Source: an uncultured Acidobacteriaceae bacterium
GTDB lineage: Bacteria > Acidobacteriota > Terriglobia > Terriglobales > Acidobacteriaceae
Reading direction: 5' to 3'
Length of the DNA stretch: 64,000 nt
NCBI GenBank assembly: GCA_963810955.1
Contig: CAWEPW010000043.1
Coordinates: 37,034 to 101,033 of the forward strand
Below, piece by piece: positions 4,603 through 39,111 of the stretch. The position numbers and the translations under genes are program-made. Numbering within the stretch: position 1 is the stretch's first letter; each line of letters begins with the position of its first letter. The notes beneath the pieces were generated by a model, which had not been told where the DNA came from, did no database searches, and saw nothing but the letters and a program-made list of their open reading frames with translations.

Positions 4603-5589
4603 TCAAGCCGTAGCTCCGTGGCGCATCCAACTCCAGAAAGACATGAGACGGCTAGTCGCTCCGGGCGCGATGCCCAAGCCAACGACCGCAAGGCTCAACA
4701 CCGCGCTATGCAAAAAACCGTTCGCTTCCGCAATCAACTCGCGCGCCTTGTCAAACTGGCGTTCTTCCAGCTTGCATTTGCCCTCTTCCAGCAGATAGCG
4801 GGCCCGAATCTCAGCGGCACGCTTTTCAACCACCGCGCGATCGGCGCCTTCGAGCGGCAAAGTTCGCAGGAACTTATCCAGAATACACCAGTAGGCTTCG
4901 GCCATTCTGGCCCGCGACACGCTGAGCGAACCGGGGCGGCCGATGAAGAGACGAGCCTGAACCGCGCGCCCATAGCTGATTTTCGCCCCGCTGTAGGCAG
5001 CCCGCACCCACATATCGTAATCGTCGCAGCGCGCCAGTTTTTCATCGAACAAGCCCGCGTCCATCAGACTCTTTTTTCGCGCTACCACGGTTGAAATCGG
5101 AATCTGGCAATCTTCCACGATCAAGGCGGCAAACGTAGCCTGACCATGGGACGGGCACTTCTCCATGAACGGCCTCTCGGTCGCCGGGTCGCCGACGAGA
5201 AGCGCGTTGGCATAGACCAGATCGAGCGCTGGATCGTCCGCGATCAGCTTCATCTGCGCCGCGAGGTGGTTCGGATACCAGCTGTCATCGCTGTCGAGAA
5301 AGGCTACGAACTCTCCGCGAGCCTGCCGAATGGCGTTGTTGCGCGCAGCGGCGGCGCGCTTGTTCTCCTGCTTGATGTAAACCAGCCGTTTCTCGCCGCT
5401 GATGTAAGGCTGCAAAACCTTCTCCAGTTCGGGCGTATCCGGCGATCCGTCGTTGACGACGATCGCCTCGAAATCCGCGTAGGTCTGCGCGAAAACGGAG
5501 TCGAGGCAAGCCGCGATCAAATCGGCGGTCTTATAGCTCGGGATGATCACGCTGACCCTGGGCGCCGGATTGGTTTCGGCTGCTGGCAT
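4603..5589 (-). CDS. Family 2 glycosyltransferase (GT-A fold)
   Basis: VSVIIPSYKTADLIAACLDSVFAQTYADFEAIVVNDGSPDT and a DSDD motif. 328 aa, intact. Confidence 0.8.
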   Translation of the reverse strand: MPAAETNPAPRVSVIIPSYKTADLIAACLDSVFAQTYADFEAIVVNDGSPDTPELEKVLQPYISGEKRLVYIKQENKRAAAARNNAIRQARGEFVAFLDSDDSWYPNHLAAQMKLIADDPALDLVYANALLVGDPATERPFMEKCPSHGQATFAALIVEDCQIPISTVVARKKSLMDAGLFDEKLARCDDYDMWVRAAYSGAKISYGRAVQARLFIGRPGSLSVSRARMAEAYWCILDKFLRTLPLEGADRAVVEKRAAEIRARYLLEEGKCKLEERQFDKARELIAEANGFLHSAVLSLAVVGLGIAPGATSRLMSFWSWMRHGATA

Positions 5590-5712: not shown

Positions 5713-7077
5713 CTACGAACTGTGAAACACCAGTTCCTTTTCTCCGGCGATGATGTTATTCGCCGCTTCCACGCCCATCATCACCGAGTGATCCATATTT
5801 CCGATTTCATAGCGCCACGCGCCAAAACGTCCGCGAGAATAAATACCTTTTTCGAGCAACGCCGGTTGCAACACCTCGAGCGCGCGGTCGCGGCCGAGCG
5901 TCGGGATCGGATACGAGTAGCCGACCGTTCGGTGATAACGCGAGACAATGCGCCCACGGTCCGATTCCTCCAGCATATTAGTCCGGATCAGTTCGGTGGT
6001 TACCTGATCAAGAATTTTTTCCGGGTCGGGCGTTTCTCCTACCCGGAATGACATTTCGCACATCAGCGAACTGTAGTGCTCGATATCGCCGTTCGGCACG
6101 TTGTTCGGCGAGTAATGCGAAAAATAGGTGGCGCGATAGCACGGCATCTGCGGGTCGGTGAAGTAAATCCAGCAGCGTCCGGTCTCTATCTTCTTCTTAA
6201 TGCCAAGGCCAACCACCAGAAGATTGTTGTGTTCGAGGCCCTGGGCGGCATCGAGCAGCCGGTTGTCGGCCGGCTTGATCATCTTCGTGAGCAGATCGAG
6301 CGGCGCGGTCGAGATCAGCAGATCGTAATTGTCGCCGGTGCCGTCGGCGAACGAAACCCGGCGTTTCTCCAGATCGACCTCGGCCAGCTTTTTGCCGGTA
6401 ATTATCTTCTTCGGAAAGTAGGCGGCCATGCGCCGGTAGATCTCGCCGGTTCCGCCGTGCAGCGGGAACTTGAACTTGTTGTTCGGACCCCAGGCCACAT
6501 CGTCGCGCTCATAAAGAACGTTTTCGAGCAGCCGTTTGAAATCTATCGCCGCCACGCGCTCGGCGATCCAGGTCTTCGACATCTGTTCGAGCGGAGTGGT
6601 CCACACCTTGGAGTTATAGGGAAACATGAATTCTTCGGCGATGCCCTCGCCCATGGTGGCCAGAATCCAGTCGCGAAAGTTTCCCGCCTCGCGTCCGCCG
6701 CCGTTCGATGCGGCTTTGGCCGCGCCGATGAGGCAACTGACCTGAACCTCTTTAGGCAAGTAGCGCAGATTGCTCTGAAACGGGTATGGAACCCACGATT
6801 CGCCTCTTACGATCCAGCTCTCGCGAATGCGCTCGTGAACTTCTTTGCCAAGAGCCTTGTCGATCAGCCGGTCGAAATAGGGATAGTGCGAAAAGATGAC
6901 GTGGCCGCCCTCATCCCAGACAAATCCATTCTTATCTACATGGGAAGTGGCGTGCCCGCCGACATACTCGGATTTCTCATAAAGAACCCAGTTATCGTAG
7001 CCCAGTTCATGGAGACGGTAGGCCGCGCCCAGTCCGGTCGGTCCTGCTCCGATAATGACAATTTTCTTGCTCGCCAT
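5713..7077 (-). CDS. glf: UDP-galactopyranose mutase, eukaryotic-type (~450-500 aa class)
   Basis: IIGAGPTGLGAA Rossmann motif. GGHVIFSHYPYFD, WVPYPFQSNLRYLPKE, CYRATYFSHYSPNN and SRGRFGAWRYEIGNMDHS closely match the conserved blocks of fungal and kinetoplastid UGMs (recalled sequence, not a database search). Confidence 0.75.
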   Translation of the reverse strand: MASKKIVIIGAGPTGLGAAYRLHELGYDNWVLYEKSEYVGGHATSHVDKNGFVWDEGGHVIFSHYPYFDRLIDKALGKEVHERIRESWIVRGESWVPYPFQSNLRYLPKEVQVSCLIGAAKAASNGGGREAGNFRDWILATMGEGIAEEFMFPYNSKVWTTPLEQMSKTWIAERVAAIDFKRLLENVLYERDDVAWGPNNKFKFPLHGGTGEIYRRMAAYFPKKIITGKKLAEVDLEKRRVSFADGTGDNYDLLISTAPLDLLTKMIKPADNRLLDAAQGLEHNNLLVVGLGIKKKIETGRCWIYFTDPQMPCYRATYFSHYSPNNVPNGDIEHYSSLMCEMSFRVGETPDPEKILDQVTTELIRTNMLEESDRGRIVSRYHRTVGYSYPIPTLGRDRALEVLQPALLEKGIYSRGRFGAWRYEIGNMDHSVMMGVEAANNIIAGEKELVFHSS

Positions 7078-7113: not shown

Positions 7114-7196
7114 GGATTCGGATTCGCTAACTCCGGATTGGCCGACTCTGGACTCGCCAACTCCGGATTCGCTAACTCCATGGATCGGCTGACTCC
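7114..7196. repeat. About 5 tandem copies of a 15-nt unit (GGAYTSGCYRACTCC) immediately upstream of the glf start (minus-strand gene)
   Basis: ggattcgctaactcc ggattggccgactct ggactcgccaactcc ggattcgctaactcc atggatcggctgactcc. Confidence 0.8.
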
Positions 7197-8114
7197 ATGC
7201 GGACCAGCATCTCCTAATCGGACATCGAATCGAACATCGGCATGACCGCTCTGAGTTTCCGAAGAAATCTTTGCAGGAGAACCAAATTGTAGCATAGGGT
7301 TTTTGCCCTTCCTGTGTGCCGAAAGTAACCGTGGATTAACGAAAATGCGCCGTCTGCCGCTGCATCTCAGCGCTTCCCGTCTTGCTGCGGCTTGGTGCTC
7401 CGCAAAGCACAGCCGCAGGCGGAAATCGTATCCCTTCAGCGGCTAGACAAACAACGAACGGAGGAAAAAGAGGAGGGAAAATAAAATCAGCCTTACTAGC
7501 GAAACCGGCATCTCTTAAGCGAACCGCTTATTTCGTGCGCCAACGGATTTCGGAGCCAACCTTGTCGGCGCAACCTTCGGCTCGCCGGTGCAAATAGTTA
7601 CTTATGATTACTTATTCCGAGGGCAGGTACTGCCGGCTGATCGGCCAACTGCTAGAATCACGTACTTAAGTGTTGCAGAATTTCATTGATTTTGGAGGCT
7701 TTTTCGTTGGGCCGATCAAGTCGAAGCGGTTCCACCATTAATTCCCAATCCGGGATGAATATCGCAACTTTTTTCACTTCGGTCGAGACTGTCCGCGACC
7801 GCAGGAACTAGTGAGTTGATCACACAATGATTTCATTATCTTACGATGAAAGATTCGTCGAATTTCGGAAGTCGAATTGCTCGCTAAATCACACGGAAGA
7901 CTTATTGACGTACGCCTGATTGACACAATGCCTGAAACATCTACTGCCTAGAGCTAGTTTACCCAATCGGACGTGACCAGTGCGTCCAGGGTGAGGAAGG
8001 AATTTTGGGATGAGGCCCAGCGATACCGATAACAAGCAGAAACACAAATTTGAAGTCGACATTGCCCTGAAATCGGAAGGGAATGCTGCCGCAAACACCG
8101 GGAGGAATAAGGAC

Positions 8115-9858
8115 TTGACCGCTTCAGGTAGCCATCTGATCGCCCCGCATGGGGGAGAACTGGTTCAGCTGCAAGTGCCGGCCGCGCGCGCCGCGGAGTT
8201 GAAGGCGCACTCGAAAGATTGGCCTTCGTGGGACCTGACCGCCCGGCAGCTTTGCGATCTGGAATTGTTGACCAGCGGCGGCTTTTCTCCGCTGCGCGGG
8301 TTTATGAATCGCGCCGATTACGAAGGCGTGTGCCACAACATGCGCCTGGCGAACGGCACACTTTGGCCGATGCCGATCACTCTCGACGTCAGTGAAGAAT
8401 TTGCCAAGAAACTGACCCCCGGTTCGAGCAAAATCGCGCTGCGCGATCCCGAAGGCGTGATGCTCGCCGTGCTCAACGTTGAAGACGTCTGGCAACCGGA
8501 CCGCAAGAGTGAAGCTCAATCCGTCTTTGGTTCCACCAGCGCCGCGCACCCGGGTGCGGACTACGCGATCAACAAGTCGCATCCGTGGTACGTGGGCGGA
8601 ACGATCGAAGAGTTGCAGGCTCCGTCGCACTACGATTTCCGCGCCCTGCGCCTGACTCCGGCCGACCTGCGTGCCGAGTTCCGCCGCCTGGGTTGGACCA
8701 CCGTCGTAGCCTTCCAGACGCGTAATCCCATGCATCGCGCCCACGTCGAGCTGACCATGCGCGCCGCCAAGCAAGTCGAGGCGAATCTGCTCATCCATCC
8801 TTCGGTCGGCATGACCAAGCCCGGCGACGTGGACTATTTCGTCCGCACCCGCTGCTACGAGCTGCTGCTGGCCAAGTATCCGCACGGCACAGTAAAGCTC
8901 TCGATGCTGCCGCTTGCCATGCGCATGGGCGGGCCGCGCGAAGCGCTGTGGCATGGCTTGATCCGCAAGAATCATGGCTGCACTCATTTCATCGTCGGCC
9001 GCGATCATGCCGGACCGGGCAAAGACACCGATGGCAGGAACTTCTACGGACCTTACGATGCCCAGGAACTATTCAAGAAACATCAGGAAGAAATGGGCGT
9101 CAAGATGGTTCCTTTCCAGATGATGGTTTATCTGCAGAATGAAGACCGTTATGTGCCTTCAGACGAAGTCCCACAGGGCGCGAAGGTCCTCGACATTTCA
9201 GGAACGGAATTGCGTCAACGCCTCAACGAGGGCCGTGATATTCCCGCTTGGTTTACCTATCCCGAAGTGGTGCAGGAATTGCGCCGCAGCTATCCGCCAC
9301 GCCACAAACAGGGCGTCACGATTTTCTTTACCGGTCTTTCGGGCTCGGGCAAGTCGACGATCGCCAACGCCCTGATCACGAAGTTCCTGGAGATGGGCGG
9401 ACGTCCCAGTCACTCTGCTCGACGGCGACCTGGTGCGCAAGAACCTGTCGTCGGAATTGGGCTTCTCGAAGGAGCATCGCGACATCAACATTCGCCGCAT
9501 CGGCTACGTCGCTTCCGAAATCACCAAGAACGGCGGCATCGCCATCTGCGCCCCCATCGCTCCTTACCAGGCGACGCGCAAGGCGGTGCGGCAGATGATT
9601 GAGCCTTTCGGCGGCTTCATCCTAGTGCACGCGGCTACGTCGATCGAAGTCTGCGAACAGCGCGATCGCAAGGGCCTCTACGCCAAGGCGCGAGCCGGCA
9701 TTGTCAAGGAATTCACCGGCATCTCCGATCCTTATGAGGCACCTGCCGATGCCGAAGTGGTCATCGATACTGCTAAGCTGACTCCCGAAGAAGCCGCCCA
9801 GACCATTATTTTGCACCTGGAGCGCGAGGGCTTTGTCGGGGCCAACGGCAACGGATAG
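8115..9858 (+). CDS. sat/cysC: Bifunctional sulfate adenylyltransferase (Sat-type ATP sulfurylase) with a C-terminal APS kinase domain (PAPS synthase). The reading frame is interrupted by a +1 indel near 9405-9410. The likely start is TTG at 8115, preceded by GGAGGA; the track ORF starts at 8010
   Basis: [24 protein letters not shown] and GRDHAGPG are ATP sulfurylase motifs. The C-terminal [22 protein letters not shown]-loop continues after the shift in frame 9433-9858 ([30 protein letters not shown]...). One extra nucleotide in cgtcccagtcact separates the two frames. Confidence 0.8.
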
Positions 9859-10144
9859 TTATCCATCCCGGTTCCCCAGTCCGCTGTTTCAACGACTTAT
9901 CGTTACTCCGGACTGGGAAGCCGGGGCTCGCTCCGGAAGGCTGCCAGCGAAGTCAATAAAGTCTATCGTTACAGTTGGCTTTATGGGATAATAACCCCGG
10001 AGAGCGGCTTCCCGTGCCGATTTTCAGTTTCTCGGTTCCTTAACATTGTTCTGCTAAACAGGATCTCGCGAAGCAGATTTTGCTAAGCAATGTTTCGCGT
10101 CACCGGGAATTGAGAAGCCGGAACTAAAGCTCTCGAAACACCGC

Positions 10145-10915
10145 ATGGAATTCTTGCTGCTAAAAGTACTGATCGGCTTCTGCGTCGGAACGCTGATCGG
10201 CTTAACGGGTCTGGGCGGCGGCGTATTGCTTTTGCCCATGCTCATCTTTGGCCTGCACATCCCCGCCATCATCGCCGTCGGCAGCGACGCGATGTTCAAC
10301 TTCTTCACCAAGATTCCCGCCAGCATCATGCACATCTGGCGGGGCACGGTGCGGAGAAAAGTCGTGCTCGCCATGGCCATCGGCAGCATGCCCGGCTCCT
10401 ATCTCGGCGTAACTTTTCTCGTGCACCTGCGCCACGTTTACGGCAACCACGTCAACGATTTCATCAAATCCGCGGTAGGGTTATTGCTCGTCTTAATTCC
10501 CACCCTGCTGATGTTTCAGGGCCGGATCGAGGACCATCTAGCCGGCCGCACGCCGACCATGAAGTCATTCGCCTTCATGAGCGTAATCGGACTTACCGGC
10601 GGATTCCTGGTGGGCATCACCTCGGTCGGCTCGGGCAGCATCATCATGATGTTGCTTCTTTTGTTTTATTCCTTCCCTCCCAAGATCATGGTCGGCACCG
10701 ACATTGCCCATGCCGTGCTTCTCACCGGCGTGACCAGTCTGTTGCACTGGCGGGCAGGCAACGTTGACGGGCATCTGGTCGGAGCATTGCTCATCGGGTC
10801 GATTCCCGGCGGAATGCTTGGCTCGTATCTGACTACGCGTGTCCCGGTACTGTGGCTGCGGCGAATCCTGTGCACCGTCTTGCTGATCACCGGAGCGCGC
10901 ATGTTGTGGGTGTAA
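10145..10915 (+). CDS. TauE/SafE (DUF81) family anion permease; a candidate sulfate or sulfite transporter by context
   Basis: 256 aa polytopic membrane protein with two halves each carrying GxGGG-like motifs (LTGLGGGVLLLP and ITSVGSGSIIMM). It sits between sat-cysC and cysQ. Confidence 0.7.
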   Translation: MEFLLLKVLIGFCVGTLIGLTGLGGGVLLLPMLIFGLHIPAIIAVGSDAMFNFFTKIPASIMHIWRGTVRRKVVLAMAIGSMPGSYLGVTFLVHLRHVYGNHVNDFIKSAVGLLLVLIPTLLMFQGRIEDHLAGRTPTMKSFAFMSVIGLTGGFLVGITSVGSGSIIMMLLLLFYSFPPKIMVGTDIAHAVLLTGVTSLLHWRAGNVDGHLVGALLIGSIPGGMLGSYLTTRVPVLWLRRILCTVLLITGARMLWV

Positions 10916-11016: not shown

Positions 11017-11841
11017 TTGGAGAACATCTTAGTGACTTCATCCGCAGAAACTCTGGAACGTATTCATGCCGCACTGGAAGCGGCTCGGGTTGTGCTGAAG
11101 GGCTTTACCCCCGGAGCCATCGAGGCCAAATTTAAAGTTGGCGACGATCCGGTCACGGCCGCCGACCGCGCCGTCGACGACGTTCTGCGCAAGACGCTGC
11201 TTCGTTCCGGCGAGGGTTGGCTCTCGGAAGAAACCGTCGACGATTTCAGCCGTCTCGACAAACAACGTGTATGGGTCGTCGATCCGCTCGATGGCACGCG
11301 CGAGTTCGTGCAAGGCATTCCCGAATTCTGTGTTTCCATCGCCATGGTGGAGAATGGAATTCCCGTCGCCGGAGGCATCTGCAATCCGGCGACCGACGAA
11401 CTCATACTGGGCTCGCGCGAAACCGGCGTAACCTACAATGGGAAGCCCGCGCAACCGAGCCAGCGCAAGGATCTCCACGGCGCGCTCGTCCTGGCCAGCC
11501 GCAGCGAAGTGAAGCGAGGCGAGTGGAAGCAGTTCGAATCGGCCGAGTTCAACATTCGCCCCATGGGATCGGTCGCCTACAAGCTCGGACTGGTCGCCGC
11601 CGGCCGCGCCGATCTCACCTTCACCCTGGTTCCAAAAAATGAGTGGGACGTTGCCGCCGGCGCCGCGCTGGTCGAAAGCGCCGGAGGGTGGGTGCTGAAA
11701 CTCGACAATTCTCCCTTGCGCTGCAACCAGAAAAATCCGCTGATCTCCGGCCTCCTGGCCGGTAGCCCATTCCTGCGCGCTCCATTGCTCGCCATGCTCG
11801 ACCGCCACTCCCAGACCGTCGGAGCGGACAAGCAAGTCTGA
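11017..11841 (+). CDS. cysQ: 3'(2'),5'-bisphosphate nucleotidase CysQ (inositol monophosphatase family). Start may be the GTG at 11032, which has a GGAGA upstream
   Basis: WVVDPLDGTREF and WDVAAGAALV metal-binding motifs; 274 aa. Confidence 0.8.
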   Translation: MENILVTSSAETLERIHAALEAARVVLKGFTPGAIEAKFKVGDDPVTAADRAVDDVLRKTLLRSGEGWLSEETVDDFSRLDKQRVWVVDPLDGTREFVQGIPEFCVSIAMVENGIPVAGGICNPATDELILGSRETGVTYNGKPAQPSQRKDLHGALVLASRSEVKRGEWKQFESAEFNIRPMGSVAYKLGLVAAGRADLTFTLVPKNEWDVAAGAALVESAGGWVLKLDNSPLRCNQKNPLISGLLAGSPFLRAPLLAMLDRHSQTVGADKQV

Positions 11842-12166: not shown

Positions 12167-14100
12167 ATGTTGCATGCAGAAAATGTACTTATAAGAAGCT
12201 ATTCTCCGTTTTCCGCTGCGCTCTTGCAGCGTCTTAGTCTTCTTACAATCCTGGCACTCACACTCACAACCATTCTCTCCGCCGAGACGCCGCATGGAAC
12301 TGCGATCCGTGGAACGGAGATACATGTAAGGGTAGGCGGAACGTCGGCGCAAGGTCCCGGCACAGACGGTGACAGTGGTTACGATGGCCCGGCGCAGCTG
12401 CCAATGGCCACCGTTGCCAGTTCCATGGCCGACACACCGGCGCCCGGCGCAATCATCAATGTCAATGCGGGCGGCGATCTCCAAACCGCCTTGAACACTG
12501 CCCAATGCGGCGACACGCTCGAACTGGAGGCCGGCGCAACTTTCACGGGATACTTCAGCTTTCCGGCTAAGGCATGCGATAACGAGCACTGGATCATTGT
12601 TCGAACGAGCGCGCTTGACACCGATCTTCCCGCCGAAGGTCAGCGCTTGACGCCTTGCTATGCGGGCGTGGCCTCACTGCCGGGGCGTCCACAATATACC
12701 TGCAACAACCCGCAGAATGTTCTCGCGAAGATCGTGAGTGCGGGGACTAGCGCGAGTCCGGTCACCTTCGCTTCCGGAGCGAATCACTATCGCCTCTTGG
12801 GCCTCGAAATCACGCGGCCGAGCGGAGTCGCGGGGTCGCCAGCGCTGGTCATAGTAATAAGAAAAGGCAACGCCGATCACATAGTTCTGGATCGCAGCTG
12901 GTTGCACGGGACAGCGGACGATGAAACCAGGTCTGGTATCTCTGTCGTCGGTGCGAGTTACGTGGCGGTCGTGGATTCGACCTTCACAAACTTTCAATGC
13001 ACCTCCAAGACCGGCACGTGCACGGATTCCCACGCAGTGGTTGGAGGCAATGGGGATCATCCAGGATGGTCCCTTCTTGATCCAAGACAACTTCCTGGAA
13101 GCTGCAGGAGAAGAAATTCTATTCGGCGGCGGCGCGGCCACCACGACTCCCTCCGACATCACCATCAGCTCCAATCACTTCTTCAAGCCATGGCAGTGGA
13201 TGCCCGGAAGCAAGCCCTTCCAGGGTGGAAAGGGCGGCCATCCATTCATTGTCAAGAACCACCTGGAACTGAAGAATGCTACACGGGTGCTGGCAGAAGC
13301 CAACCTGATGGAAGACGTCTGGGGAGGTTTCAGCCAGCAAGGCTTCGCAATCGTCCTCACTCCGAGCAACCAGCCTAGTCAAACAAAACCCATCGTCGAC
13401 ATGTGCCCGACCTGCGAGGTCACCGACGTGACCATCCGTTATACCCACATCATGCATGCGGGAGGGGGGATCGTTATGGCGACCCCCATTTCCGGACATG
13501 GCAAGAATGAAGGCGGAGCAGCCGCCAAGGAAGGAGCTCGCTGGAGCGTTCACGACGTGGTCTTCGATGACATCAGCCAGGGTTACACCGGCGAGGGTAG
13601 GTTGTTTTACCTGGCGAACGGCTGGCCGACGAACCCGGTGAACACCGTCACGATCAATCACATTACCGGATTCTCCGATGTAAAAGGCGGCTTTATGCTC
13701 ACGGGAAATAACCCGCCCAATCAGGAGATGTACGGCTTAGTCTTCACTAACAATATTGTCACCACCGGAGTTCACCCGATGTGGTCTGCAGAGGGTGGCG
13801 ATACCAGTTGTGCGAAATCAGATGTCCCGGTCACCGTTCTGAGCAACTGCTTCAAGACATTCACCTTCAACTATAACGCCCTCCTGGGGACGACTTCCAG
13901 TTTTGGACCAGGAACCTGGCCGGATCGGCAATATGTTCGGTCCGAGCCCCGGCGTTACCGCGTTTGCCGCATATAAGAACGGCAACGGTGGAAACTATCA
14001 GCTTCCCGCGAACAGCCCCTATAAGAATGCCGGGAGCGACGGCAAGGATCTGGGGGCCGACATCGTCGGACTCACCAAGGCTTTGGCCGGAGTCGAGTAA
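12167..14100 (+). CDS. Secreted right-handed parallel beta-helix protein (putative polysaccharide lyase or depolymerase), paralog 1. Spread over three frames (12167-13378, 12921-13976, 13903-14100), so either two frameshifts or a pseudogene
   Basis: Colinear with the intact paralog 17210-19069 (CGDTLELEAGATF, LPGRPQYT, TGTCTDS..GGNGD, ILFGGGA, FKPWQWMPG, WGGFSQQGF, CEVTDVTIRYT, C-terminal DLGADIVGL..LAGVE). Frame changes fall near 13050 and 13900. Confidence 0.6.
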
Positions 14101-14173: not shown

Positions 14174-15363
14174 CTAGCCAGCCGGAGGACGCGTTCCCAG
14201 CTGATCAAGTTCTATCCGTGACGGAATGGCGCGCCCATGTCGCAGCGCCTGGTAGACCCACGCAAACAATGCTGAATTGATCATGCAAAAATAGTAAGGG
14301 AGCCGCAGAACTTTGGGCTTGAGGCTAGCCATAGCGCCCAGTACAGCGAGCCCATAGAAGAGCACTTGCCCGAGCAACAACCAGTCGTAAGGGAATTGTC
14401 CGCGCAAAGCGATATTCGCTCCAAGCGCGATGAGCATAAAGATGGGCACCAGCAGCCGCCCGGTTTTGTGAGAGAGCAAACAGAAGAGGACAAACGGCCG
14501 CGGCGGCCAGATCAGCCCTTTGATCTCCCGCAATTGTTCGATGTTGCCGGCCGTGATTCGCACGCGGCGGGAGAATCCCTCCATTTCATGAGCCTCTTCA
14601 TAGGCCACGGCTGCCGGTTCGTAGGCCACGCGATGTCCCTGTTCAACAATGCGCATCGGAATCGTGAAGTCGTCGTTGATGGTGTTGAGCGGCGGAAATG
14701 GATAAAGCGCGCGACGAATGGCATAAAGAGATCCGTGCGCGCCAGTAAATGCGCCGAGCTTGGCCTCTTGCACTTTCAGGAAAGTTTCATATTTCCAGTA
14801 GAGATCTTCTTGCGACCCAAGGTGGGCCTGATCTTTCTTCAGGAGCCGGTAAACTCCGCTGGCCGCGCCCACCCGCGCATCGTTGAAACTCTGCACCAGC
14901 ACGCGGAGAGAGTCGGCGGCCAACATGCTGGAAGCGTCGGAGAACGCTACGATGTCTCCGCGCAATTCGGGCACGGCATCGTTAAGAACCGCCATCTTTC
15001 CGCGATTCTTCTCATAATTGAGCAGGCGAATTCGTCCGTCGCTTCCGGTGTCGCTTCGTTTTCGCTTTTATAAAATGACCGCACAATTTCAGCCGTGGCA
15101 TCCTTCGACCCATCCGATGCGACCACGATTTCCAGCTTGTCGGCCGGGTAGTCAAGCGCAAGACTGTTGCGGATTTTGTCCGCGATAACAGCGGCTTCGT
15201 TGTAGGCGGCCACCAGCAGCGAAACGGACGGCTCAATCGGCTCCCGGCGCGGCGCGGCGCGAACCACACCCTGCAGCAGCCACAGCAGAATCGGATAACC
15301 GGCGTAGACGTAGACCGTAACCCCCGCCGAAATCCAGAACAGAAGCCTGGTCGTCATTAGCAA
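14174..15363 (-). CDS. Membrane-embedded family 2 glycosyltransferase (synthase-like, with TM segments at both ends). Split into two frames by an indel near 15040-15075
   Basis: N-terminal part (14947-15363): TM helix then LLVAAYNEAAVIADKI...LEIVVASDGSKDATAEIV. C-terminal part (14174-14995): NYEKNRGKMAVLNDAV..DIVAFSDASS..QEDLYWKYE..TGAHGSLYAIRR followed by several TM helices. Confidence 0.65.
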
Positions 15364-15370
15364 TACTGCC

Positions 15371-16056
15371 TTAGATGGCCGTAGACCGGATGCAATGCAG
15401 TTGCCCGAGAATCTCGTGCGAATCGATGCGGAATCCGGCGCGCTTCAAATAGTCTTCCGCCTGCGCCTGCGTGAAGAAATAGACCGGGCAGCCGTCCGCC
15501 TTGAGGCGCACCTTGCGAATCGATGCGCGCAGAGTCGCGGCGCGCGGCCATGCCGACAAGAAACGTCTTCTTCGTAATTCCGCGGATCACCTGCAATCTC
15601 GGCAACGGGTCGGCCACGTAATCCCAGAATCCGATCGCAATCACCTGATCGAACTTCTGGTCCGTCTTCCAGTCGAGCACATCGCTGAGCACGAACTTGC
15701 AGCGATCCGCGACACCCTTCTTTTTCCACCAGTTGCTGACTCAACCTCAGCATCTCCGGAGCAAAGTCCAGGCCGGTAACCTGCGCGCCGCGTTTGGCCA
15801 GCGTCGCGACAAAGCGTCCCGAACCGCAGCCGACGTCGCAGATCGTCATGCCGTTCAAGTCAGGGGACGGGCCTGATTCGCGCATGACCCACTCGTAGCG
15901 CTGGTAAATGTCTTTTCTCAGCCATTTATCCAGGCCGCGGCCGATCGGGCCCTTGTTGCCTGTATAGATCGCGTCGAAATCGTTGGCGATGTCGTTCCAG
16001 TATTTCGCTATCTGCTCAGATTCGTCAGTTTTTGTTTTCGTGGCTGTTCCATTCAT
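15371..16056 (-). CDS. Class I SAM-dependent methyltransferase, spread across three frames (two frame changes near 15712 and 15545)
   Basis: ICDVGCGSGRFVATLAKRGAQVTGLDFAPEMLRLSQQLVEKEG in frame 1. ..FVLSDVLDWKTDQKFDQVIAIGFWDYVADPLPRLQVIRGITKKTFL in frame 2. CPVYFFTQAQAEDYLKRAGFRIDSHEILGQ in frame 3. Confidence 0.65.
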
Positions 16057-16918
16057 AGAAATCGAAATCCTTGGCCGTATCGGCGAGTCCGCTTTCGCGG
16101 AAGCTGGTGTAATTTCCTGCCTGCAGCACGCTCTGGAAACGATCGAGAGTGCTCGACAGGTTGGTGTAGTGACGTAGACGGGAGCTCAGACGGCCCGGCA
16201 ACCGCGGCTGTTCGGGGTCGATCTCCCAGGGATGAATGTAAATCACGATGGGCAAACCTTCTTTTTGCACGCTTTTCAATCCCAATCGTGTGTAGATTCG
16301 CGGCAGCAGCCGAAGATAGCCGCCTCCGCCGACTGGCATATTGTGTCCAGCCAGGCGAAACGTGGTGATGGGAAACTCCGTCATGGGTCCCGAAGGCGTT
16401 TGAAAACGAAACGGAGCCCTCGGCGCGCCGGGCATCCCATAGCGGTCATGATGGATGGGAAAAATACTCGAGTCGTAGGTGAATCCAAGCTCGGTCAGGA
16501 TATCCAGCGCCCAAACCGAACGGTCGATCACAGAATAGGTAGGTGCACGATAACCGGTGACCGGTTGGCCGCCGATTTGCTCAATAATGTCCTTGGCGCG
16601 CCTAGTATCTTCCTTGAAATCAGCAGGTTCCAGCTTATATATCAACCGGTGCCAATAGGAATGGCAGGCCAACTCATGTCCACCTGCCGCAATCTCACGT
16701 ACCAATGCCGGAAACCGCTCCGCCACCCATCCCAGAACGAAAAACGTTCCCTGAATGTTGAGCCTAGCCATTAACTCCAATAGCCGCCGCGTGTTCGGTT
16801 CCACGCGGCTCGTATAGCTATCCCAGCGAGCGCGATCAACCACATCGGAAAAGGCTTCGGCGTGGAAATAGTCTTCCACATCCACCGACACCACATTTCT
16901 GAGTATTTTCTCTGACAT
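16025..16918 (-). CDS. Polysaccharide deacetylase family protein of the PEP-CTERM/exosortase-locus subtype
   Basis: NVVSVDVEDYFHAEAF N-terminal signature, ...GTFFVLGWVAERFP..ACHSYWH. 297 aa, intact. Confidence 0.7.
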   Translation of the reverse strand: MSEKILRNVVSVDVEDYFHAEAFSDVVDRARWDSYTSRVEPNTRRLLELMARLNIQGTFFVLGWVAERFPALVREIAAGGHELACHSYWHRLIYKLEPADFKEDTRRAKDIIEQIGGQPVTGYRAPTYSVIDRSVWALDILTELGFTYDSSIFPIHHDRYGMPGAPRAPFRFQTPSGPMTEFPITTFRLAGHNMPVGGGGYLRLLPRIYTRLGLKSVQKEGLPIVIYIHPWEIDPEQPRLPGRLSSRLRHYTNLSSTLDRFQSVLQAGNYTSFRESGLADTAKDFDFYEWNSHENKN

Positions 16919-17060
16919 TCCCCGATGGATCGTCCGCGAAAGGATTTCTCTCTTAGTATCGCCCAGCCAGCGGACATTTGGAACGTAATTTTGCCGCTCG
17001 CCGCAAGAGCACAGTTACAAAAGTAAGCCCATCGAAATGTGCTTAAAGCAAGGCTTTTCC

Positions 17061-17089
17061 GCAATTCGCCTTCCTTCGTGGTCCTTAGT
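17061..17089. repeat. Three tandem copies of a 9-10-nt unit (TCCTTMGTGG) in the 5' region of beta-helix paralog 2
   Basis: tccttcgtgg tccttagtgg ccttagtgg. Confidence 0.75.
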
Positions 17090-17209
17090 GGCCTTAGTGG
17101 TGATGCTTTCGCGGACCGCTCCACAACCGCATGTTACTATCTGCTATCGCAGCTGCTGAGAATATCCTTCATTCCACCCACGGGACGTGCCGTTAGGAGA
17201 ACCAACACC

Positions 17210-19069
17210 GTGTCCTTTTTTTGCCGTCTGAGCTTTCCGCCGAAGTTAACTTTTCGTTCGCTCAATAGTTTCGGAGTTGTGTTCGCGATTGCCTTCGCAG
17301 CACTTCTAATTCCACAGCCAGCCGCAGCCGCGAATACGCCTCCCATCGGGGAGAACGCCTATTGCGGCAAGGGAGACATACCGAAGTTCGGCGAAAAGGA
17401 CGGCCCGGCGCAACTTCCGACGTCGTGCTATTACACGGCAATGGATGGCACTCCCTCGCCCGGCAAACAGATCCGCGTCGGTGCCAGCTCCGATTTGAAT
17501 TCCGAGCTCGAGTCGGCAAAGTGCGGAGACACGCTGTTGCTCGCCGCCGGCGCGTCATTCCACATCAAGGAATTGCCGGCGAAGAAATGCGACGACCAGC
17601 ACTACATCACCATACGCACCGATACGCCAGATTCCAAACTGCCGCCGGAAGGAACCCGCATTTCGCCGGCCTGGGCCGGAGTCGCCAGCTTGCCGGGCAG
17701 GCCAACCTATTCGCAGCCAGCAGGTGGCCCGGCCAAGCTCCTGGCGACCCTGCTCGTCAAAGTACCCTCGGGAGCGACCATGGGAGACCACTATCGCTTC
17801 ATCGGCATCGAGTGGTCCGCCGACCCCGGCGCGCGTATTGCCCGCCTGGTGTCGACCGAGGGCGCCGACCACCTGATTTTCGACCGCAACTGGTTCCATC
17901 CTCCGAATGACGAGGAAATGAACAAGGGGGTCGGAATGATCCACGGCACCCGGTTCATCGCCGTGATCAATTCCTATTTTAGTGGCTTCCATTGCATAGC
18001 CCGCACGGGCACGTGCACCGATTCCTCCGCCGTCGGCGGCGGAAATGGGGACGTTCCTGTCAGCACTCTCAAGATTTATAACAACTTCCTCGAGTCGTCA
18101 GGACAGAGCATTTTATTCGGCGGCGCCAGGTCCGAGGTCAATCCCACCGATATCGAAATCCGCCGCAATCATCTGTTCAAGCCCATGATCTGGAAACAAG
18201 GCGAGCCAGGCTTCGCTCCAGACAGCTCTGGTAATCCTCCGATCGTCAAGAATCATTTCGAGTTGAAGAGCGGAATCCGCGTGCTCTTCGAAGCCAACCT
18301 GCTCGAAAATTGCTGGGGCGGTTTCTCGCAAACCGGCTTTTCCATCCTGCTGACTCCCATCAATCAAAGCGGCATGTGCCCGAAGTGCGCGGTTACGGAT
18401 ATCACCATCCGCTACAACCGTATCCGAAACGTTTCGGGTGTGATGGAGGTGGCGAATCCCTTCGCGCAACAACGCGCAGTCGCCACTGACGGAGGCCGCT
18501 ACAGCATTCACGATCTGGTGGTTGACTCGGTCCATGATCAGGACTGGAAAGGCCGCGGCGAGTTTGCGGTCGTCAGTACCAACGCTGAATTGCTGCACGA
18601 CGTTGCTTTCAATCATGTGACCGCATTTGTGGCGGGCACGCTTTTTAATATTGGCAACCACACTGCCGACAAGATTCCCAATTTCAGTGTCACCAATAGC
18701 GTGTTCAGGCTTGGTGGCAGGCAGCCGGATTTAGCCTCAGTCGGCGGTGGCCAGGCTAACTGCGCCGATCAAGCCCAGCGCGCCGGCGTGGAGGCGGTGC
18801 TCAAAGCCTGCTTCACTAACTACAAATTCGAAAACAATTTGTTCATCAATACTCACGGCCCCATTCCCAAAGACAACATCTCAGTCGGATCGGCCGAAGC
18901 CGCCGGCATTCGCGATCTCAAAGATACGGTCAGCAAAGATCCACGACTCTGCCACGCCAAAGAAGCGGGGTGTGCGAAGGCCTCTCCCGGCGCAGGCGCA
19001 GCCTCCGATGGTCGCGACATGGGCGCCGACGTCGACGCCGTAGAAGCAGCCCTCGCCGGCGTCGAGTAA
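17210..19069 (+). CDS. Secreted right-handed parallel beta-helix protein, paralog 2 (intact). Start uncertain: GTG at 17210 gives a signal-peptide-like N-terminus; the track ORF starts at 17039
   Basis: VSFFCRLSFPPKLTFRSLNSFGVVFAIAFAALLIPQPAAAA signal-like region. Repetitive beta-helix-like blocks (NNFLESSGQSILFGGA, IEIRRNHLFKP, WGGFSQTGF, VTDITIRYNRI). Confidence 0.6.
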   Translation: MSFFCRLSFPPKLTFRSLNSFGVVFAIAFAALLIPQPAAAANTPPIGENAYCGKGDIPKFGEKDGPAQLPTSCYYTAMDGTPSPGKQIRVGASSDLNSELESAKCGDTLLLAAGASFHIKELPAKKCDDQHYITIRTDTPDSKLPPEGTRISPAWAGVASLPGRPTYSQPAGGPAKLLATLLVKVPSGATMGDHYRFIGIEWSADPGARIARLVSTEGADHLIFDRNWFHPPNDEEMNKGVGMIHGTRFIAVINSYFSGFHCIARTGTCTDSSAVGGGNGDVPVSTLKIYNNFLESSGQSILFGGARSEVNPTDIEIRRNHLFKPMIWKQGEPGFAPDSSGNPPIVKNHFELKSGIRVLFEANLLENCWGGFSQTGFSILLTPINQSGMCPKCAVTDITIRYNRIRNVSGVMEVANPFAQQRAVATDGGRYSIHDLVVDSVHDQDWKGRGEFAVVSTNAELLHDVAFNHVTAFVAGTLFNIGNHTADKIPNFSVTNSVFRLGGRQPDLASVGGGQANCADQAQRAGVEAVLKACFTNYKFENNLFINTHGPIPKDNISVGSAEAAGIRDLKDTVSKDPRLCHAKEAGCAKASPGAGAASDGRDMGADVDAVEAALAGVE

Positions 19070-19099
19070 TTGCCCGTGGTGGAATAATGCCCGTGTGGG

Positions 19100-19140
19100 G
19101 GCGGGGCTCTGCCCCGCCAAGACGGGGCGAAGCCCCCGTC
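19100..19140. terminator. Two adjacent GC-rich hairpins (ggcgggg..ccccgcc and gacgggg..ccccgtc) just after the paralog 2 stop; candidate terminator
   Basis: Read directly. They overlap the first ~45 nt of track ORF 19095-20288, which argues for a later start of that gene. Confidence 0.35.
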
Positions 19141-19241
19141 ACCACGCAATCCCAGGCCAAGACGATGCAGTAACTTCAGTAACCCTGTATTCACAGGGCT
19201 TTCAAACGGCTCCGATCATCCTGCATGTTAAGATTTTTCAG

Positions 19242-20288
19242 GTGTCCAGCCCCATCTCCAGCGATCGCAAATACTCGCCAGTCTTCGTGATGGGCTGCCA
19301 CCGTTCGGGAACCAACCTGCTCTACGACATGCTGCTCTCCGCTGGCGGTTTTGCCATCTACCGTGGCATTCTGCCGGTCTATGAAACTCTGATTCCTTGC
19401 TTCGGCTCGCTGCAGAGTCGCGCGCATCGCGAAAAGCTCGTCGAGACCTGGTTCCTCAGCAAAGGCTTCCGGCGCACCGGTCTCGCTGCTGAGCACTTGT
19501 CGGCGCGAATCGTCAACGAATGCCGCACCGGCGGCGACTTCATTCGCATTGTCATGGATTCCGTAGCTGAGAGCCAACACGCGCAGCGCTGGGCCGCATA
19601 CGATCCCGACAACGTGATACACGTTGAGCAAATCAAGCGCGAGATACCCAACGCTTTGTTTCTCCACATCATCCGCGACGGACGCGACATAGCTCTCTCG
19701 CTGAAAAAAATGGGCGGCTTCGCTCCCCTGCCCTGGGACCGCACTCAGACCGAGAGCCTGGTGGCGACAGCGCTTTATTGGCAGTGGATGGTGCAGTGCG
19801 GCCGCTCGGGCGGCAGCAAGTTCCCCTCCGACTATATCGAGGTCCGCTACGAAGACCTGGTCTCCAACCCGCGCCAGACGCTCGGCAGGGTGGGCGCTTT
19901 CATCGATCACGATCTGGAATATGACCGCATTCAAAACGCCGGCCTCGGCCGTGTGTCGGACACGAACTCTTCATTTCGAGAAGAAAGCGCCCAGCACGAG
20001 ATCAACCCGCTGGGGCGCTGGCGAGAGCGCCTCTCGCATACTGAGATCGCGGCTATCGAAGCCAATGTCGGGGACTGCCTGCAGGAAAATGGCTATGAGC
20101 TTTCGCTTCCTGCTGAAGAACGCCGCCTCGGCTTGCGCCTGTCGTCGATGCGTGCCATCTATCCTGCCTATCTCAACGGCAAGTCATGGCTCAAGGCACG
20201 CACGCCGCTCGGCCGTTTTGTCAGGACATCGGTTCTCAAACTCGAAGAGGAAGAACCCTTGCAACCAGCCGAGCCGGTTCTAAAGTAA
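19242..20288 (+). CDS. Sulfotransferase of the Stf0 / Sulfotransfer_3-like family, the fourth sulfotransferase in the locus. Start likely the GTG at 19242
   Basis: YSPVFVMGCHRSGTNLLYDML (PAPS 5'-phosphate-binding loop) and LFLHIIRDGRDIALS (3'-PB-like). Confidence 0.65.
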   Translation: MSSPISSDRKYSPVFVMGCHRSGTNLLYDMLLSAGGFAIYRGILPVYETLIPCFGSLQSRAHREKLVETWFLSKGFRRTGLAAEHLSARIVNECRTGGDFIRIVMDSVAESQHAQRWAAYDPDNVIHVEQIKREIPNALFLHIIRDGRDIALSLKKMGGFAPLPWDRTQTESLVATALYWQWMVQCGRSGGSKFPSDYIEVRYEDLVSNPRQTLGRVGAFIDHDLEYDRIQNAGLGRVSDTNSSFREESAQHEINPLGRWRERLSHTEIAAIEANVGDCLQENGYELSLPAEERRLGLRLSSMRAIYPAYLNGKSWLKARTPLGRFVRTSVLKLEEEEPLQPAEPVLK

Positions 20289-27480: not shown

Positions 27481-29585
27481 CTAGATTCTTTTGAATGCCT
27501 TCTGAATATCCTGCATGGAGTAGCGCAGCACGACTGGCCTGCCATGTGGGCAGGTCATGGGATGGTCGGTCTTGGACAGTTCGGAGAGCAGCCATTCCAT
27601 TTTGTTTTGTTCCAGTGGCATGTTGACCTTGATAGCGGCGTGGCAGGCTATGGAGGCGGCAATTCGAGTGCGCACGGCTTCGAGATTGATGGCTTGCTCT
27701 TCGCGAGTCAACTGTTCGAGGATTTCGTTGAGCAGGTGCTCGATTTGCGCGGCGTCTACGCCGGCAGGGGCGAGTTTGACCGCAACGCTGCGGGCTCCGA
27801 AGGGTTCGGCCTCAAAACCGTTGTGGGACAGTTCTTCGGCAATTTGCTGAAGAATAGCTTGCTGCGCAGGCGTCAGTTCGATGATGAGCGGCATCAGCAG
27901 GCGTTGGCTTTCCACCTGCTGGCCTGCGCGCTGGCGCACGATGCGTTCGAAGAGCACGCGCTCGTGAGCGACGTGCTGATCGATGATCCAGAGGCCATCT
28001 TCGTTGACGGCCAAAATAAACGAGTTTCGAATCTGGCCTAACGGTCGCAGCGTGCGACAGCGATTCGAGGGTCGGCGAGTTTGCGGTTCCTGCGCGATGG
28101 GCGGAGCACAGCCATGATCGGGAACCGGTTCTGGATTCATCGTCAGTGGCGCAACTGCGCTTCTGGCACTCCCGCAAGCGACAGGGCGGCGTTTCCTCGA
28201 CTGCGATTCCGGCGGCAAACTCAAAACGCGCCGTGACTGCGGGAATAGCCGGCGCTTGCAGTCGCGAATCCCCGGCCGCCGCCGGTTCATACAAGTCGCG
28301 CCATGGGCTGCGACGGTGCAGTGCATCGGTCTGCTGCCGCCATCGGCGAAGCGGGAGTTACCTGTGCCGGGGCTGCTAAGCCCGGGAGTCGCCGAAGGCT
28401 GCGCTTTGATTTCCTTCAGGAATTGCGGCACCGGCCGCGCTTTCATCAACGCCGCCCGCACCGACTCGCGCACGAAATCATGAATCACCGTCTGCTGGCG
28501 GAACCGCACTTCAGTCTTTGAAGGATGCACATTCACATCCACCTCGGCGGTGGGCATTTCGATAAAAAGCAGAACGACTGGAAAGACCGTCGGCGGCAGA
28601 ATATTGCGATAGGCCTCGACGATGGCATGTTGCATAAGCCGATCGCGAATCAGCCGTCCATTGACGAAAATGAAAATCGAATTGCGATTGAGCTTCTGAA
28701 TTTCCGGCTTGGAAACAAAACCGTGCAGCCGCAATTCACCGAAATCTGGGGCGCCGACACTGTCCGCGAGTCCGCTGCTGTCTCATCTGGAGGTGCTGCT
28801 TCCCCTGCCTTAGAGGGGGCTTCGCGGACAAGAGTGTTCGCGCCACCCGTTTCGCTGCGCCGCCACGGCGGGGGCTGCGGAAGCCCAACCCGCTCCAGCG
28901 GCTGCACCGCCGCCAGCGGAATCAACTGGTCGAGCGTCTCGCCTCCGAATACCTGGTAGACACGTTCGCGATGGCCGGCCACGGGCGGCGCCACCAGCAA
29001 TGCATTCGTGGCCGAGTGCAACTCAAAATGCTTTTCAGGATGCGCCAGCGCGTAGTGCGTTACAAGCGATGCGATATGCGATAGTTCAGTCGACTCCGAA
29101 CGCAGAAATTTTTTGCGCGCCGGCGTATTAAAGAAGAGATCGCGAATCGTGATCGCAGTTCCCAGTGGCAGGCCTGCCTCTTCGACGCGGATGATTTTGC
29201 CGCCGTTGATCTCGAGAACCGTTCCCGCCGCTTCTTCGTCGGCACGCGTTTCCAGATGCAGGCGCGCAACCGAAGCAATGGACGGCAGCGCCTCGCCGCG
29301 AAAACCCAGGGTCGCAATGCTCAGCAGGTCGTCGGTATCTTTGATCTTGGAAGTCGCGTGGCGCTCAAATGCGAGCATGGCATCGTCGCGCACCATGCCG
29401 CAGCCGTTGTCGGTGATCTGGATCAGCTTCTTCCCTCCCGCCTCAACCTGTATGCGAATGCGCGTGGAACCAGCGTCCAGCGCGTTCTCGAGCAACTCCT
29501 TCACCACCGACGCGGGACGTTCGACCACTTCGCCGGCGGCGATCTGGTTGGCGACTCTTTCGGGAAGAACGTGAATTTTGCCCAT
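27481..29585 (-). CDS. mutL: DNA mismatch repair protein MutL, split into an N-terminal ATPase ORF (28650-29585) and a middle-plus-C-terminal ORF (27481-28734) that overlap in different frames
   Basis: N-terminus: HVLPERVANQIAAGEVVERPASVVKELLENALDAGSTRIRI..ITDNGCGM (GHKL ATPase). C-terminal ORF: LHGFVSKPEIQKLNRNSIFIFVNGRLIRDR...TDHPMTCPHGRPV. The junction region (28740-28900) is unusually long and frame-shifted. Confidence 0.8.
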
Positions 29586-30594: not shown

Positions 30595-30781
30595 GTCGCG
30601 GAAGTTATCAATCGTGCCGCGAGGGACTGCCTACCATCATCGCTTCTCGGCTGGAGGTGATGATAAGCTTTCTGTTCGGACTTTCACGTGCGAGGCGAGC
30701 TTAGCATTTTCGAAGAGCGAAATTCCGCGCTTGCCGCCAGGACGACAGATGGAGCCCGACCACGATCCCGATCCCAGTACA

Positions 30782-38200: not shown

Positions 38201-39111
38201 GGATTCGGCAACCCTGCATTCGGGTAACACGAGATCGCCACGTCCGCCTTTTCCGAGAGATCTTCGAGAAATGGATACATCAGATCGGGACCGAGAGAGC
38301 AGTTGAGTCCGACTGATAACGGTTTCACGTGCCGCACCGCGTTCCAGAACGCCTCGGTCGTCTGCGCCGAGATCATCGTCTCGCCGCCACGTCCCACCGC
38401 CGCCGAGATCATCACTGGCAGTTCTTTGACATCATGGTCGAACACCTCACGGATTGCGACAAGTGCGGCTTTGGCGTTCAGCGAGTCGAAGATCGTCTCG
38501 ACTAAAAGCAAATCCACGCCGCCAGCGATAAGACCTCTTACCTGCTGCGCGTAGGCTGTCTTCACCTGATCGAAAGTGACCACTCGAAAGCCTGGATCGT
38601 CGGCATCGGGCGAGTTCGACAGAGAAACGGTCAGCGGCCCAATCGCTCCCGCCACGAATCGCTCACGCGAGGTTGCGGTTCCGATGCGGTCGGCCCATTC
38701 ACGGCACTGCCGCGCCGATTGCTCATTGATATCCCAAGTCAGGCCGTTAAGAAACGGATCGTCGACGACCTTTTGGTAGAACGCGGGGTCTTTGCGGCCG
38801 CCGCGTTCCCGCGGATCTTCGACAAAGAATTCGCTCTGGGTGATACTGGTTGCTCCGAACGTATTGGTCTCGATAATGTCCGCTCCCGCCTCCAGAAACC
38901 GGCGATGGATGTCACCGATCATTTCCGGCTTAGTAAGCGAGAAAAGATCACCGTTGTTCAGAAGGCTCTTCGTCGCGTCCTTGAATCGTTCTCCCCGGAT
39001 GTCCGCTTCTGTCATGCCGTAGCTGCGGATGGTCGTGCCCATCGCTCCATCGATGATGACAATGCGATCTTCGAGGATCTTCTCAAGAGTATGTTGGCGG
39101 GCTTTTATCAT
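35251..39111 (-). CDS. metH: Cobalamin-dependent methionine synthase MetH, present as three consecutive ORFs in different frames: Hcy-binding 37981-39111, pterin-binding 36614-37984, B12-binding plus AdoMet-activation 35251-36867
   Basis: All four MetH modules are present and colinear. At the junction near 36865, EGPL / [32 protein letters not shown] is separated by one extra g (cttgatg). The junction near 37985 changes frame by 2. Confidence 0.85.

Follow-up and report, generated by a model that had tools for sequence, protein, structure and literature searches.

A predicted long-form, 'eukaryotic-type' UDP-galactopyranose mutase in a sulfotransferase-bearing locus of an uncultured Acidobacteriaceae bacterium

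The window analyzed here is a stretch of 64,000 nucleotides from the assembly GCA_963810955.1 of an uncultured Acidobacteriaceae bacterium of the order Terriglobales (contig CAWEPW010000043.1, positions 37,034 to 101,033 of the forward strand; all coordinates below count from the first letter of the window). Its minus strand carries at 5713..7077 an intact open reading frame (ORF) of 454 aa, which a phmmer search of PDB chains, active-site mapping, and an AlphaFold2 (AF2) model assign to the long-form or 'eukaryotic-type' class of UDP-galactopyranose mutase (UGM), the predicted source of UDP-galactofuranose (UDP-Galf) from UDP-galactopyranose (UDP-Galp). To our knowledge, this class has previously been characterised only in eukaryotes. 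The UGM gene (7077-5713) heads a run of minus-strand genes, in which it is followed by a glycosyltransferase gene of the GT2 type (5589-4603) and three Sulfotransfer_1 genes (4557-1689). The original prediction, which had been made from the letters of the DNA, described a 454-aa protein with four characteristic blocks and left its strand unstated: The ATG-started minus-strand ORF contains all four of them, namely GGHVIFSHY (residues 57-65), WVPYPFQ (residues 95-101), CYRATYFSHYSP (residues 313-324), and SRGRFGAWRYEIGNMDHS (residues 414-431). Since the UGM protein aligns over 100% of its length with over 100 database homologues, themselves 453-455 aa long, we consider the start codon and the gene boundaries to be sound.

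Among the PDB chains, the UGM of Trypanosoma cruzi (TcUGM, 4dsg) is matched at E = 1.1e-111 (query 3-444 versus chain 9-453) and the UGM of Aspergillus fumigatus (AfUGM, 3uka) at E = 6.2e-106 (query 5-451), with 12 variants alike at ~1e-105; the chains ranked next reach E ~1e-5 and cover the motif for flavin adenine dinucleotide (FAD) only. The proposed resemblance to fungal and trypanosomatid UGMs is hence far above chance. TcUGM (PDB 4dsg, 4dsh) is the best match in both sequence and structure, being of near-equal length with only three indels of 3-4 residues and having the same active site, whereas the acidobacterial ORF differs by its bacterial host, its GT2/sulfotransferase operon, and a Met at residue 428. 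AfUGM, also named UgmA or GlfA (PDB 3uka, 3ute, and others), is 44% identical over 441 aligned residues; it carries an insertion of ~20 residues after the position aligned to 330 that is not present in the ORF, whose C-terminus is moreover ~30 residues shorter (454 aa versus 510 aa). The ORF was also said to be unlike the classical bacterial enzyme Glf, and this is borne out at every level: No classical bacterial UGM chain is found at E<0.01 among the PDB chains, the Pfam domain GLF (PF03275), for which E. coli Glf scores E = 6e-86, is not found in the ORF, and Glf of E. coli K-12 (b2036; classical members have ~370-400 aa) aligns in BLASTP with 20% identity over 175 aa of the FAD-binding N-terminus only (E = 2e-4). 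Within the 64-kb window no classical glf gene is present. What the two classes share is the predicted reaction, the flavin chemistry, and the N-terminal FAD motif as well as the residues H63, Y162, W167, R182, R327, E373, Y419, R447, and Y453 (AfUGM numbering). The family profiles are less specific: Pfam recognizes only Amino_oxidase (E = 6e-23) and NAD_binding_8 (residues 8-74, E = 3e-12), and the best NCBIfam matches are PRK07208-type 'hypothetical protein' sub-models that all score far under their cut-offs. The Amino_oxidase match operates at superfamily level only; the best matches are UGMs and not an unrelated amine oxidase family, and the active site is conserved.

The predicted fold agrees with this assignment. 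An AF2 model built on an alignment of 54 sequences has a mean predicted local distance difference test score (pLDDT) of 91 and a predicted template modeling score (pTM) of 0.90. When compared with the PDB by Foldseek, it superimposes on TcUGM 4dsg with a template modeling (TM) score of 0.93, a root-mean-square deviation of 2.2 Å, and 41% identity, and on the AfUGM chains with TM scores of 0.90-0.93; the next fold class are protoporphyrinogen oxidases (PPOs) at TM ~0.77 and 15-17% identity. The model accordingly displays the three-domain fold of UGMs together with the eukaryote-specific additions.

For the active site, the reference was Table 2 of van Straaten et al. 2012 (PMC3322874), which sets 20 AfUGM residues beside those of four prokaryotic UGMs; we placed the AfUGM residues on the ORF through a HMMER alignment. 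Nineteen of the 20 are identical, the sole exception being Q458; G61, G62, Y104, F106, Q107, E181, W204, and Y334 of AfUGM are likewise identical, so that the ORF retains 27 of the 28 residues compared in active site and loops, including the G-G-H loop, R182, R327, R447, W315, and Y317. At each position that separates the two classes, again except Q458, the ORF has the eukaryotic state, namely F62, R85, N155, P198, N199, W303, and Y305 (AfUGM F66, R91, N163, P206, N207, W315, Y317). In the alignment of 54 homologues (42-88% identity) 23 of the active-site residues are invariant, and they are highly conserved among 141 diverse family representatives. The FAD-binding GxGxxG motif comprises residues 10-15 (GAGPTG; codons at 7033..7050, minus strand; recognized in the sequence and by Pfam NAD_binding_8), of which G10, G12, P13, T14, and G15 are invariant in the 54 homologues. 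Mapping places the histidine loop G57-G58-H59 (AfUGM G61-G62-H63), invariant in the same alignment, at 6901..6909 on the minus strand; the double-glycine form of this loop has been described as unique to eukaryotic UGMs (PMC3624792). The codon of R174, which corresponds to the mobile-loop arginine R182 that positions diphosphate and galactose in AfUGM (PMC3322874), lies at 6556..6558 (minus strand), and that of R315, likewise invariant, at 6133..6135 (minus strand); its counterpart R327 is essential, the R327A mutant of AfUGM being inactive (PMC3322874). The C-terminal substrate-binding block R417...Y423...N427 (AfUGM R447, Y453, N457), located by mapping and alignment within SRGRFGAWRYEIGNMDHS, occupies 5797..5829 on the minus strand. 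R174, R315, R417, Y305, Y389, and Y423 (AfUGM R182, R327, R447, Y317, Y419, Y453) are all kept and are invariant in the 54 homologues. By sequence, active site, and predicted fold, the ORF is assigned to the long-form class; it adds a new bacterial member to a class of enzymes already known and does not represent a new kind of system.

From these correspondences a reaction mechanism can be proposed. The FAD bound to the N-terminal Rossmann domain would be reduced as in AfUGM and TcUGM. In eukaryotic UGMs this reduction is performed directly by NAD(P)H (PMC3624792), and because the class-specific residues are conserved we predict direct activation by NAD(P)H also for the acidobacterial enzyme. 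In bound UDP-Galp, the uracil would stack on Y98 and form a hydrogen bond with Q101, while R174, R315, and R417 would hold the diphosphate. The reduced flavin's N5 could then attack C1 of the galactose with displacement of UDP; the ring would open via a flavin iminium and close again via O4, and a renewed attack of UDP would finally yield UDP-Galf. A glycosyltransferase, most probably the neighbouring GT2, would then use this product, and the resulting glycan would be sulfated by the co-operonic sulfotransferases, which depend on 3'-phosphoadenosine 5'-phosphosulfate (PAPS). The divergently oriented genes for a PAPS synthase, a TauE permease, and a CysQ-like protein are predicted to supply PAPS and to remove 3'-phosphoadenosine 5'-phosphate (PAP), the by-product of sulfotransfer.

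The genes that would carry out these later steps surround the UGM gene and recur with it; synteny was counted in the best 80 related loci from GTDB species representatives. Directly downstream of the UGM gene, at 4603..5589 on the minus strand, lies the GT2 gene (Pfam Glycos_transf_2, E = 6e-30), which occupies the same place in 70 of the 80 loci and whose best PDB match is the GT2 domain of a chondroitin synthase. By its position, it is a candidate user of UDP-Galf. It is followed by three tandem PAPS-type sulfotransferases at 4557-3649, 3519-2647, and 2687-1689 on the minus strand (Pfam Sulfotransfer_1, E = 1e-38 to 1e-44), and at least one sulfotransferase is found near the UGM gene in 69 of the 80 loci. 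On the plus strand, divergent from the UGM gene, a bifunctional ATP sulfurylase/adenosine phosphosulfate (APS) kinase, i.e., a PAPS synthase, is encoded at 8010..10031 in frameshifted form: It is matched by NCBIfam NF004040 with 655.7 bits, just below the cut-off of 669, over profile positions 5-427 of 572, and the remaining APS-kinase domain runs on in the +1 frame beyond a 530-aa 'ATP sulfurylase' ORF. In comparison with five orthologous loci, an extra base is present in a CCC run near 9406 (9400-9410), which reflects either an assembly error or a pseudogene. Next come a TauE/SafE-family anion permease (10145..10915, plus strand; Pfam TauE, E = 1e-44; six hydrophobic segments), which may serve in sulfate or sulfite transport, and a CysQ-like 3'(2'),5'-bisphosphate nucleotidase (11017..11841, plus strand; Pfam Inositol_P, E = 2e-49), whose best NCBIfam match, TIGR01331 CysQ, scores 131.9 bits and hence stays under the cut-off of 228.8. 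The ATP sulfurylase, TauE, and CysQ-like genes are present in 42, 41, and 38 of the 80 loci, respectively, counts that are lower because contig ends limit the view. The two divergent runs are separated by an unusually long spacer of 932 bp. Inside this spacer, ~40 bp upstream of the UGM start codon, a 15-bp tandem repeat spans 7119-7179 (consensus CGGATTCGCCAACTC, 4.1 copies, 78% matches), and no Rfam family was found within the window, the repeat region included.

Altogether, the locus holds three Sulfotransfer_1 genes and one Sulfotransfer_3 gene, PAPS synthesis, a CysQ-like gene, and TauE in a conserved order, and this sulfation character had not been part of the original prediction. Sulfated products are uncommon in bacteria. 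Four sulfotransferases together with a dedicated PAPS supply point to such a product, and the module of UGM, GT2, sulfotransferase, and PAPS genes predicts, more specifically, a sulfated, galactofuranose-containing glycan. Homologues in Streptomyces, Chthonomonadales, Gemmatimonadota, and Nanoarchaeota also directly adjoin glycosyltransferases, so the association of these UGMs with glycan synthesis appears to be general; the sulfation module was seen only in acidobacterial loci among the contexts examined.

Taken together, we assign a probability of roughly 0.8 to the reading that the ORF encodes a functional, flavin-dependent long-form UGM whose UDP-Galf enters a glycan that is sulfated by the co-operonic enzymes, and that this UGM is native in Terriglobales and belongs to an unrecognised prokaryotic family. 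Several observations weigh against it. Our search of the literature returned no biochemical data on any prokaryotic long-form member. The adjacent GT2 has no similarity to E. coli WbbI, finds nothing specific among solved structures, and shows no specific likeness to a known galactofuranosyltransferase. Among solved structures, the three Sulfotransfer_1 proteins come closest to cytosolic SULTs of animals (E = 1e-24), and the glycopeptide sulfotransferases Teg12 and StaL rank lower; being most like small-molecule SULTs, the three proteins need not have the Galf glycan as their acceptor. The frameshift in the PAPS synthase, if real, would impair sulfation in this strain. Finally, AfUGM Q458 is replaced by Met428, which is the state of classical bacterial UGMs, and flavin-dependent pyranose/furanose mutases that act on other sugars are on record, for instance HS41.17, a CDP-D-fucopyranose/CDP-6-deoxy-L-altropyranose mutase (PMC12369002). 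The last two points raise the question of whether the acidobacterial enzyme might apply the same mechanism to a different nucleotide sugar, such as UDP-GalNAc, UDP-arabinopyranose, or a 6-deoxyhexose like fucose, and thus feed a glycan with a furanose other than Galf. We regard this as unlikely, because the contacts to both uracil (AfUGM Y104, Q107, N163, W167, F158, Y162) and galactose (AfUGM R182, N207, W315, R327, N457) are fully identical. Furthermore, the one differing pocket position varies freely within the family, with 69 Q versus 62 M at position 428 among the 141 diverse representatives, and neither a 4,6-dehydratase nor a reductase for 6-deoxy sugars was found among the genes of the locus. 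We therefore retain UDP-Galp as the predicted substrate.

Orthologues of this predicted UDP-Galp mutase are widespread in Acidobacteriota. The best 120 database matches are 78-93% identical, and those that bear an organism name belong to Terriglobales or Candidatus Sulfotelmatobacter. A scan of the GTDB species representatives gave 180 coding matches, of which the best 80, at 72-94% identity, stem nearly all from metagenome-assembled genomes (MAGs) of peat and soil Acidobacteriota, so that at least 80 and probably ~180 species of this phylum possess an orthologue. Beyond the phylum, an exhaustive search of cluster representatives at 50% identity recovered 992 clusters at E<=1e-30 and 3712 at E<=1e-10, among which AfUGM and TcUGM would rank only ~25th to 40th. 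The top representatives mostly retain the UGM active site: 47 carry the full set of 25 scored residues, and the majority carry 21 or more. Named members comprise Streptomyces plasmid homologues (40-41% identity, E ~1e-105), an Actinobacteria MAG, and MAGs of Gemmatimonadota, Chthonomonadales (Armatimonadota), Sumerlaeia, Desulfuromonadaceae, Bdellovibrionota, and Nanoarchaeota, and thus represent at least eight prokaryotic lineages. These other prokaryotic long-form homologues resemble the acidobacterial protein in length (~450-475 aa), identity (40-49%), the UGM active site, and the adjacency of glycosyltransferases. A more distant tier with ~25-30% identity, related to PRK07208-type 'hypothetical' flavoproteins, belongs to the same superfamily but differs in architecture and context, and it was used as outgroup only. 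In this tier, which may not be one of UGMs, the domain forms the C-terminal part of a 1251-aa 'FAD-dependent oxidoreductase' on Pantoea megaplasmids (Pantoea piersonii plasmid p527820, L083:4673-8428); further members lie on MT835622 and MT835980, two phage contigs from the human gut that carry no annotation.

Where the acidobacterial gene originates from was addressed by pairwise identities, base composition, and neighbor-joining (NJ) trees. A prokaryotic 'core' group shares 47-54% identity with AfUGM and TcUGM and is hence as close to them as they are to each other (49%), whereas the acidobacterial UGM shares 40-44% with eukaryotes, 42-49% with this core group, and 41% with Streptomyces. In an NJ tree of 141 diverse representatives the deep nodes were unresolved, with bootstraps near 0, and a smaller taxon-labelled tree was used instead, which contains only taxon-verified sequences (P0174, P0186, and P0206 were left out) and was computed with 1000 bootstraps. 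The smaller tree is built from distances, to which a simple correction was applied, and has only one outgroup (Pantoea); long-branch effects may act in it on the acidobacterial and Streptomyces sequences. Under these settings, the split between core prokaryotes plus eukaryotes on the one side and Acidobacteria, Streptomyces, the Actinobacteria MAG, and the Pantoea outgroup on the other side received 97.9% bootstrap; the acidobacterial sequences are monophyletic at 100% and the eukaryotic ones at 49%, and Acidobacteria joined a eukaryote in 0 of 1000 bootstraps. A eukaryotic relative with an unusual gene model is KAG9393200.1 of the metamonad Carpediemonas membranifera, annotated as UGM (1551 aa), in which two tandem full-length UGM domains (~66-527 and ~862-1322) are 99% identical; the doubling stems either from a very recent tandem duplication that the gene model has fused or from an artefact of assembly or annotation.

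The original prediction had suggested that the enzyme may have moved between domains. As a recent event, i.e., acquisition by this acidobacterium or its immediate ancestors from a fungus or protist, such a transfer might be thought plausible, given that the class has hitherto been characterised only in eukaryotes and that soil and peat acidobacteria share their habitat with fungi; it is nonetheless very improbable. Orthologues with 72-94% identity and kept synteny are present in 80 species representatives across Acidobacteriota, the large family is mostly prokaryotic, GC content (0.56) and GC content at third codon positions (GC3; 0.70) of the UGM gene are native when compared with the mean of the genes in the window (0.577 and 0.685), the identity to eukaryotes does not exceed that to other bacteria (40-44% versus 41-49%), and both the absence of any joint grouping in 1000 bootstraps and the 97.9% split separate the acidobacterial sequences from the eukaryotic ones. 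Because orthologue spread, synteny, base composition, identities, and NJ trees concur, we regard the acidobacterial UGM as native and old, and on this sequence evidence as vertically inherited in Terriglobales. What may stand of the earlier suggestion is an ancient movement: Any transfer between the domains would have been ancient and more probably directed from prokaryotes to eukaryotes, and since bacterial lineages flank the eukaryotes on both sides in the NJ topology a prokaryotic origin of the class is favoured. A wider proposal, which we put forward tentatively and rate at somewhat less than even odds, is that the 'eukaryotic' class is ancestrally prokaryotic (bacteria and DPANN archaea) and the source of eukaryotic UGM, and that Terriglobales use a deep-branching member of it for a sulfated, Galf-containing extracellular glycan.

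That the class has escaped notice in prokaryotes is a matter of labels. All named prokaryotic members are annotated as 'FAD-dependent oxidoreductase', 'NAD(P)-binding protein', 'protoporphyrinogen oxidase', or 'hypothetical protein', and many fungal UGMs in the same database bear equally generic labels, so that an oxidase-type label reflects a missing family model; the label 'protoporphyrinogen oxidase' given by JGI is explained by PPOs being the next-closest fold. A redox flavoenzyme of the amine oxidase, PPO, or phytoene desaturase type, for which the Pfam Amino_oxidase match (E = 6e-23), the database names, and the rank of PPO as next-best fold could be cited, was rejected as barely credible, because TIGR00562 reaches 44.2 bits against a cut-off of 97.85 over residues 4-74 only, the solved PPO 1sez is matched at E = 2.8e-5 over residues 2-73 only, i.e., through the FAD motif, versus 1e-111 over the full length for UGM, the fold agrees at TM 0.77 and 16% identity versus 0.93 and 41%, the UGM-specific active site is conserved, and fungal UGMs carry the same labels. 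By the sequence criteria used here, the long-form class is a common, mostly prokaryotic family that is not recognised as UGM in public annotation. A literature search, whose incomplete coverage makes it weak evidence, likewise returned no description of prokaryotic long-form UGMs, acidobacterial Galf, or sulfated acidobacterial exopolysaccharide (EPS).

Beyond the sulfation genes, the window contains further candidates for glycan modification: a GT2-like gene (14174-14995, minus strand; Pfam), a methyltransferase (15445-16056, minus strand; Pfam), an XrtA-system polysaccharide deacetylase (16025-16918, minus strand; TIGR03006 with 353.7 bits, above the cut-off of 276.2), a 676-aa, presumably secreted protein of no family with an N-terminal hydrophobic segment (17039-19069, plus strand), and the Sulfotransfer_3 protein (19095-20288, plus strand; Pfam). 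The segment 14174..20288 shows partial synteny in the related loci and is followed by the housekeeping genes hisS, aspS, and cmk. The GT2 genes and the deacetylase, whose TIGR03006 score exceeds the cut-off, support the notion of a glycan or EPS locus, and the match to an XrtA/PEP-CTERM-system deacetylase implies that the region is part of an exosortase-associated exopolysaccharide system; the window itself showed neither an exosortase nor export genes. The 676-aa protein has a paralogue at 12167-13976 (plus strand). Both proteins (~600-680 aa) have no Pfam or NCBIfam match, start with a hydrophobic segment, and are kept in ~29 of the 80 related loci. Judged by the pattern of their sequences, they may be secreted proteins built of repeats or resembling a beta-helix, and possibly enzymes that modify or depolymerise glycans.

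Elsewhere in the window, several genes are split into overlapping ORFs across frames: mutL into two pieces (27481-29585), metH into three (35251-39111), a tamB-like gene into two (47446-51154), and the paralogue of the 676-aa protein into two (12167-13976). This pattern suggests an indel-prone (long-read) assembly, in which the UGM ORF itself is intact. A further ORF at 31313-32689 (plus strand; region 30614-32689) unites in one frame Dyp_perox_C (residues 10-135) with a complete encapsulin shell, Linocin_M18 (residues 187-437), and represents either a fusion of DyP and encapsulin or a frameshift artefact in a pair of DyP cargo and encapsulin.

Two points make the locus noteworthy, both of moderate interest: The 'eukaryotic' UGM class is widely distributed among prokaryotes, where it has gone unrecognised, and Terriglobales couple such a UGM to a sulfation module. 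In fungi, kinetoplastids, and nematodes UGM serves as a drug target, and the eukaryotic enzyme is usually presented apart from the bacterial one. With the class spread over prokaryotic phyla and the eukaryotes placed beside one prokaryotic subgroup, the origin of eukaryotic Galf metabolism becomes testable, and a compact bacterial long-form UGM of 454 aa could serve as an easy model of the NAD(P)H-activated class. There appear to be thousands of prokaryotic UGMs among the entries named 'protoporphyrinogen oxidase' or 'FAD-dependent oxidoreductase', and because of these oxidase-type labels the extent of galactofuranose biosynthesis among environmental bacteria is probably underestimated; the mislabelling would be mended by a dedicated family model. 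We know of no sulfated galactofuranose-containing polymer described for Acidobacteriota, and the conserved Galf and sulfation locus in peat and soil Terriglobales hints at an undescribed sulfated glycan in these abundant soil bacteria.

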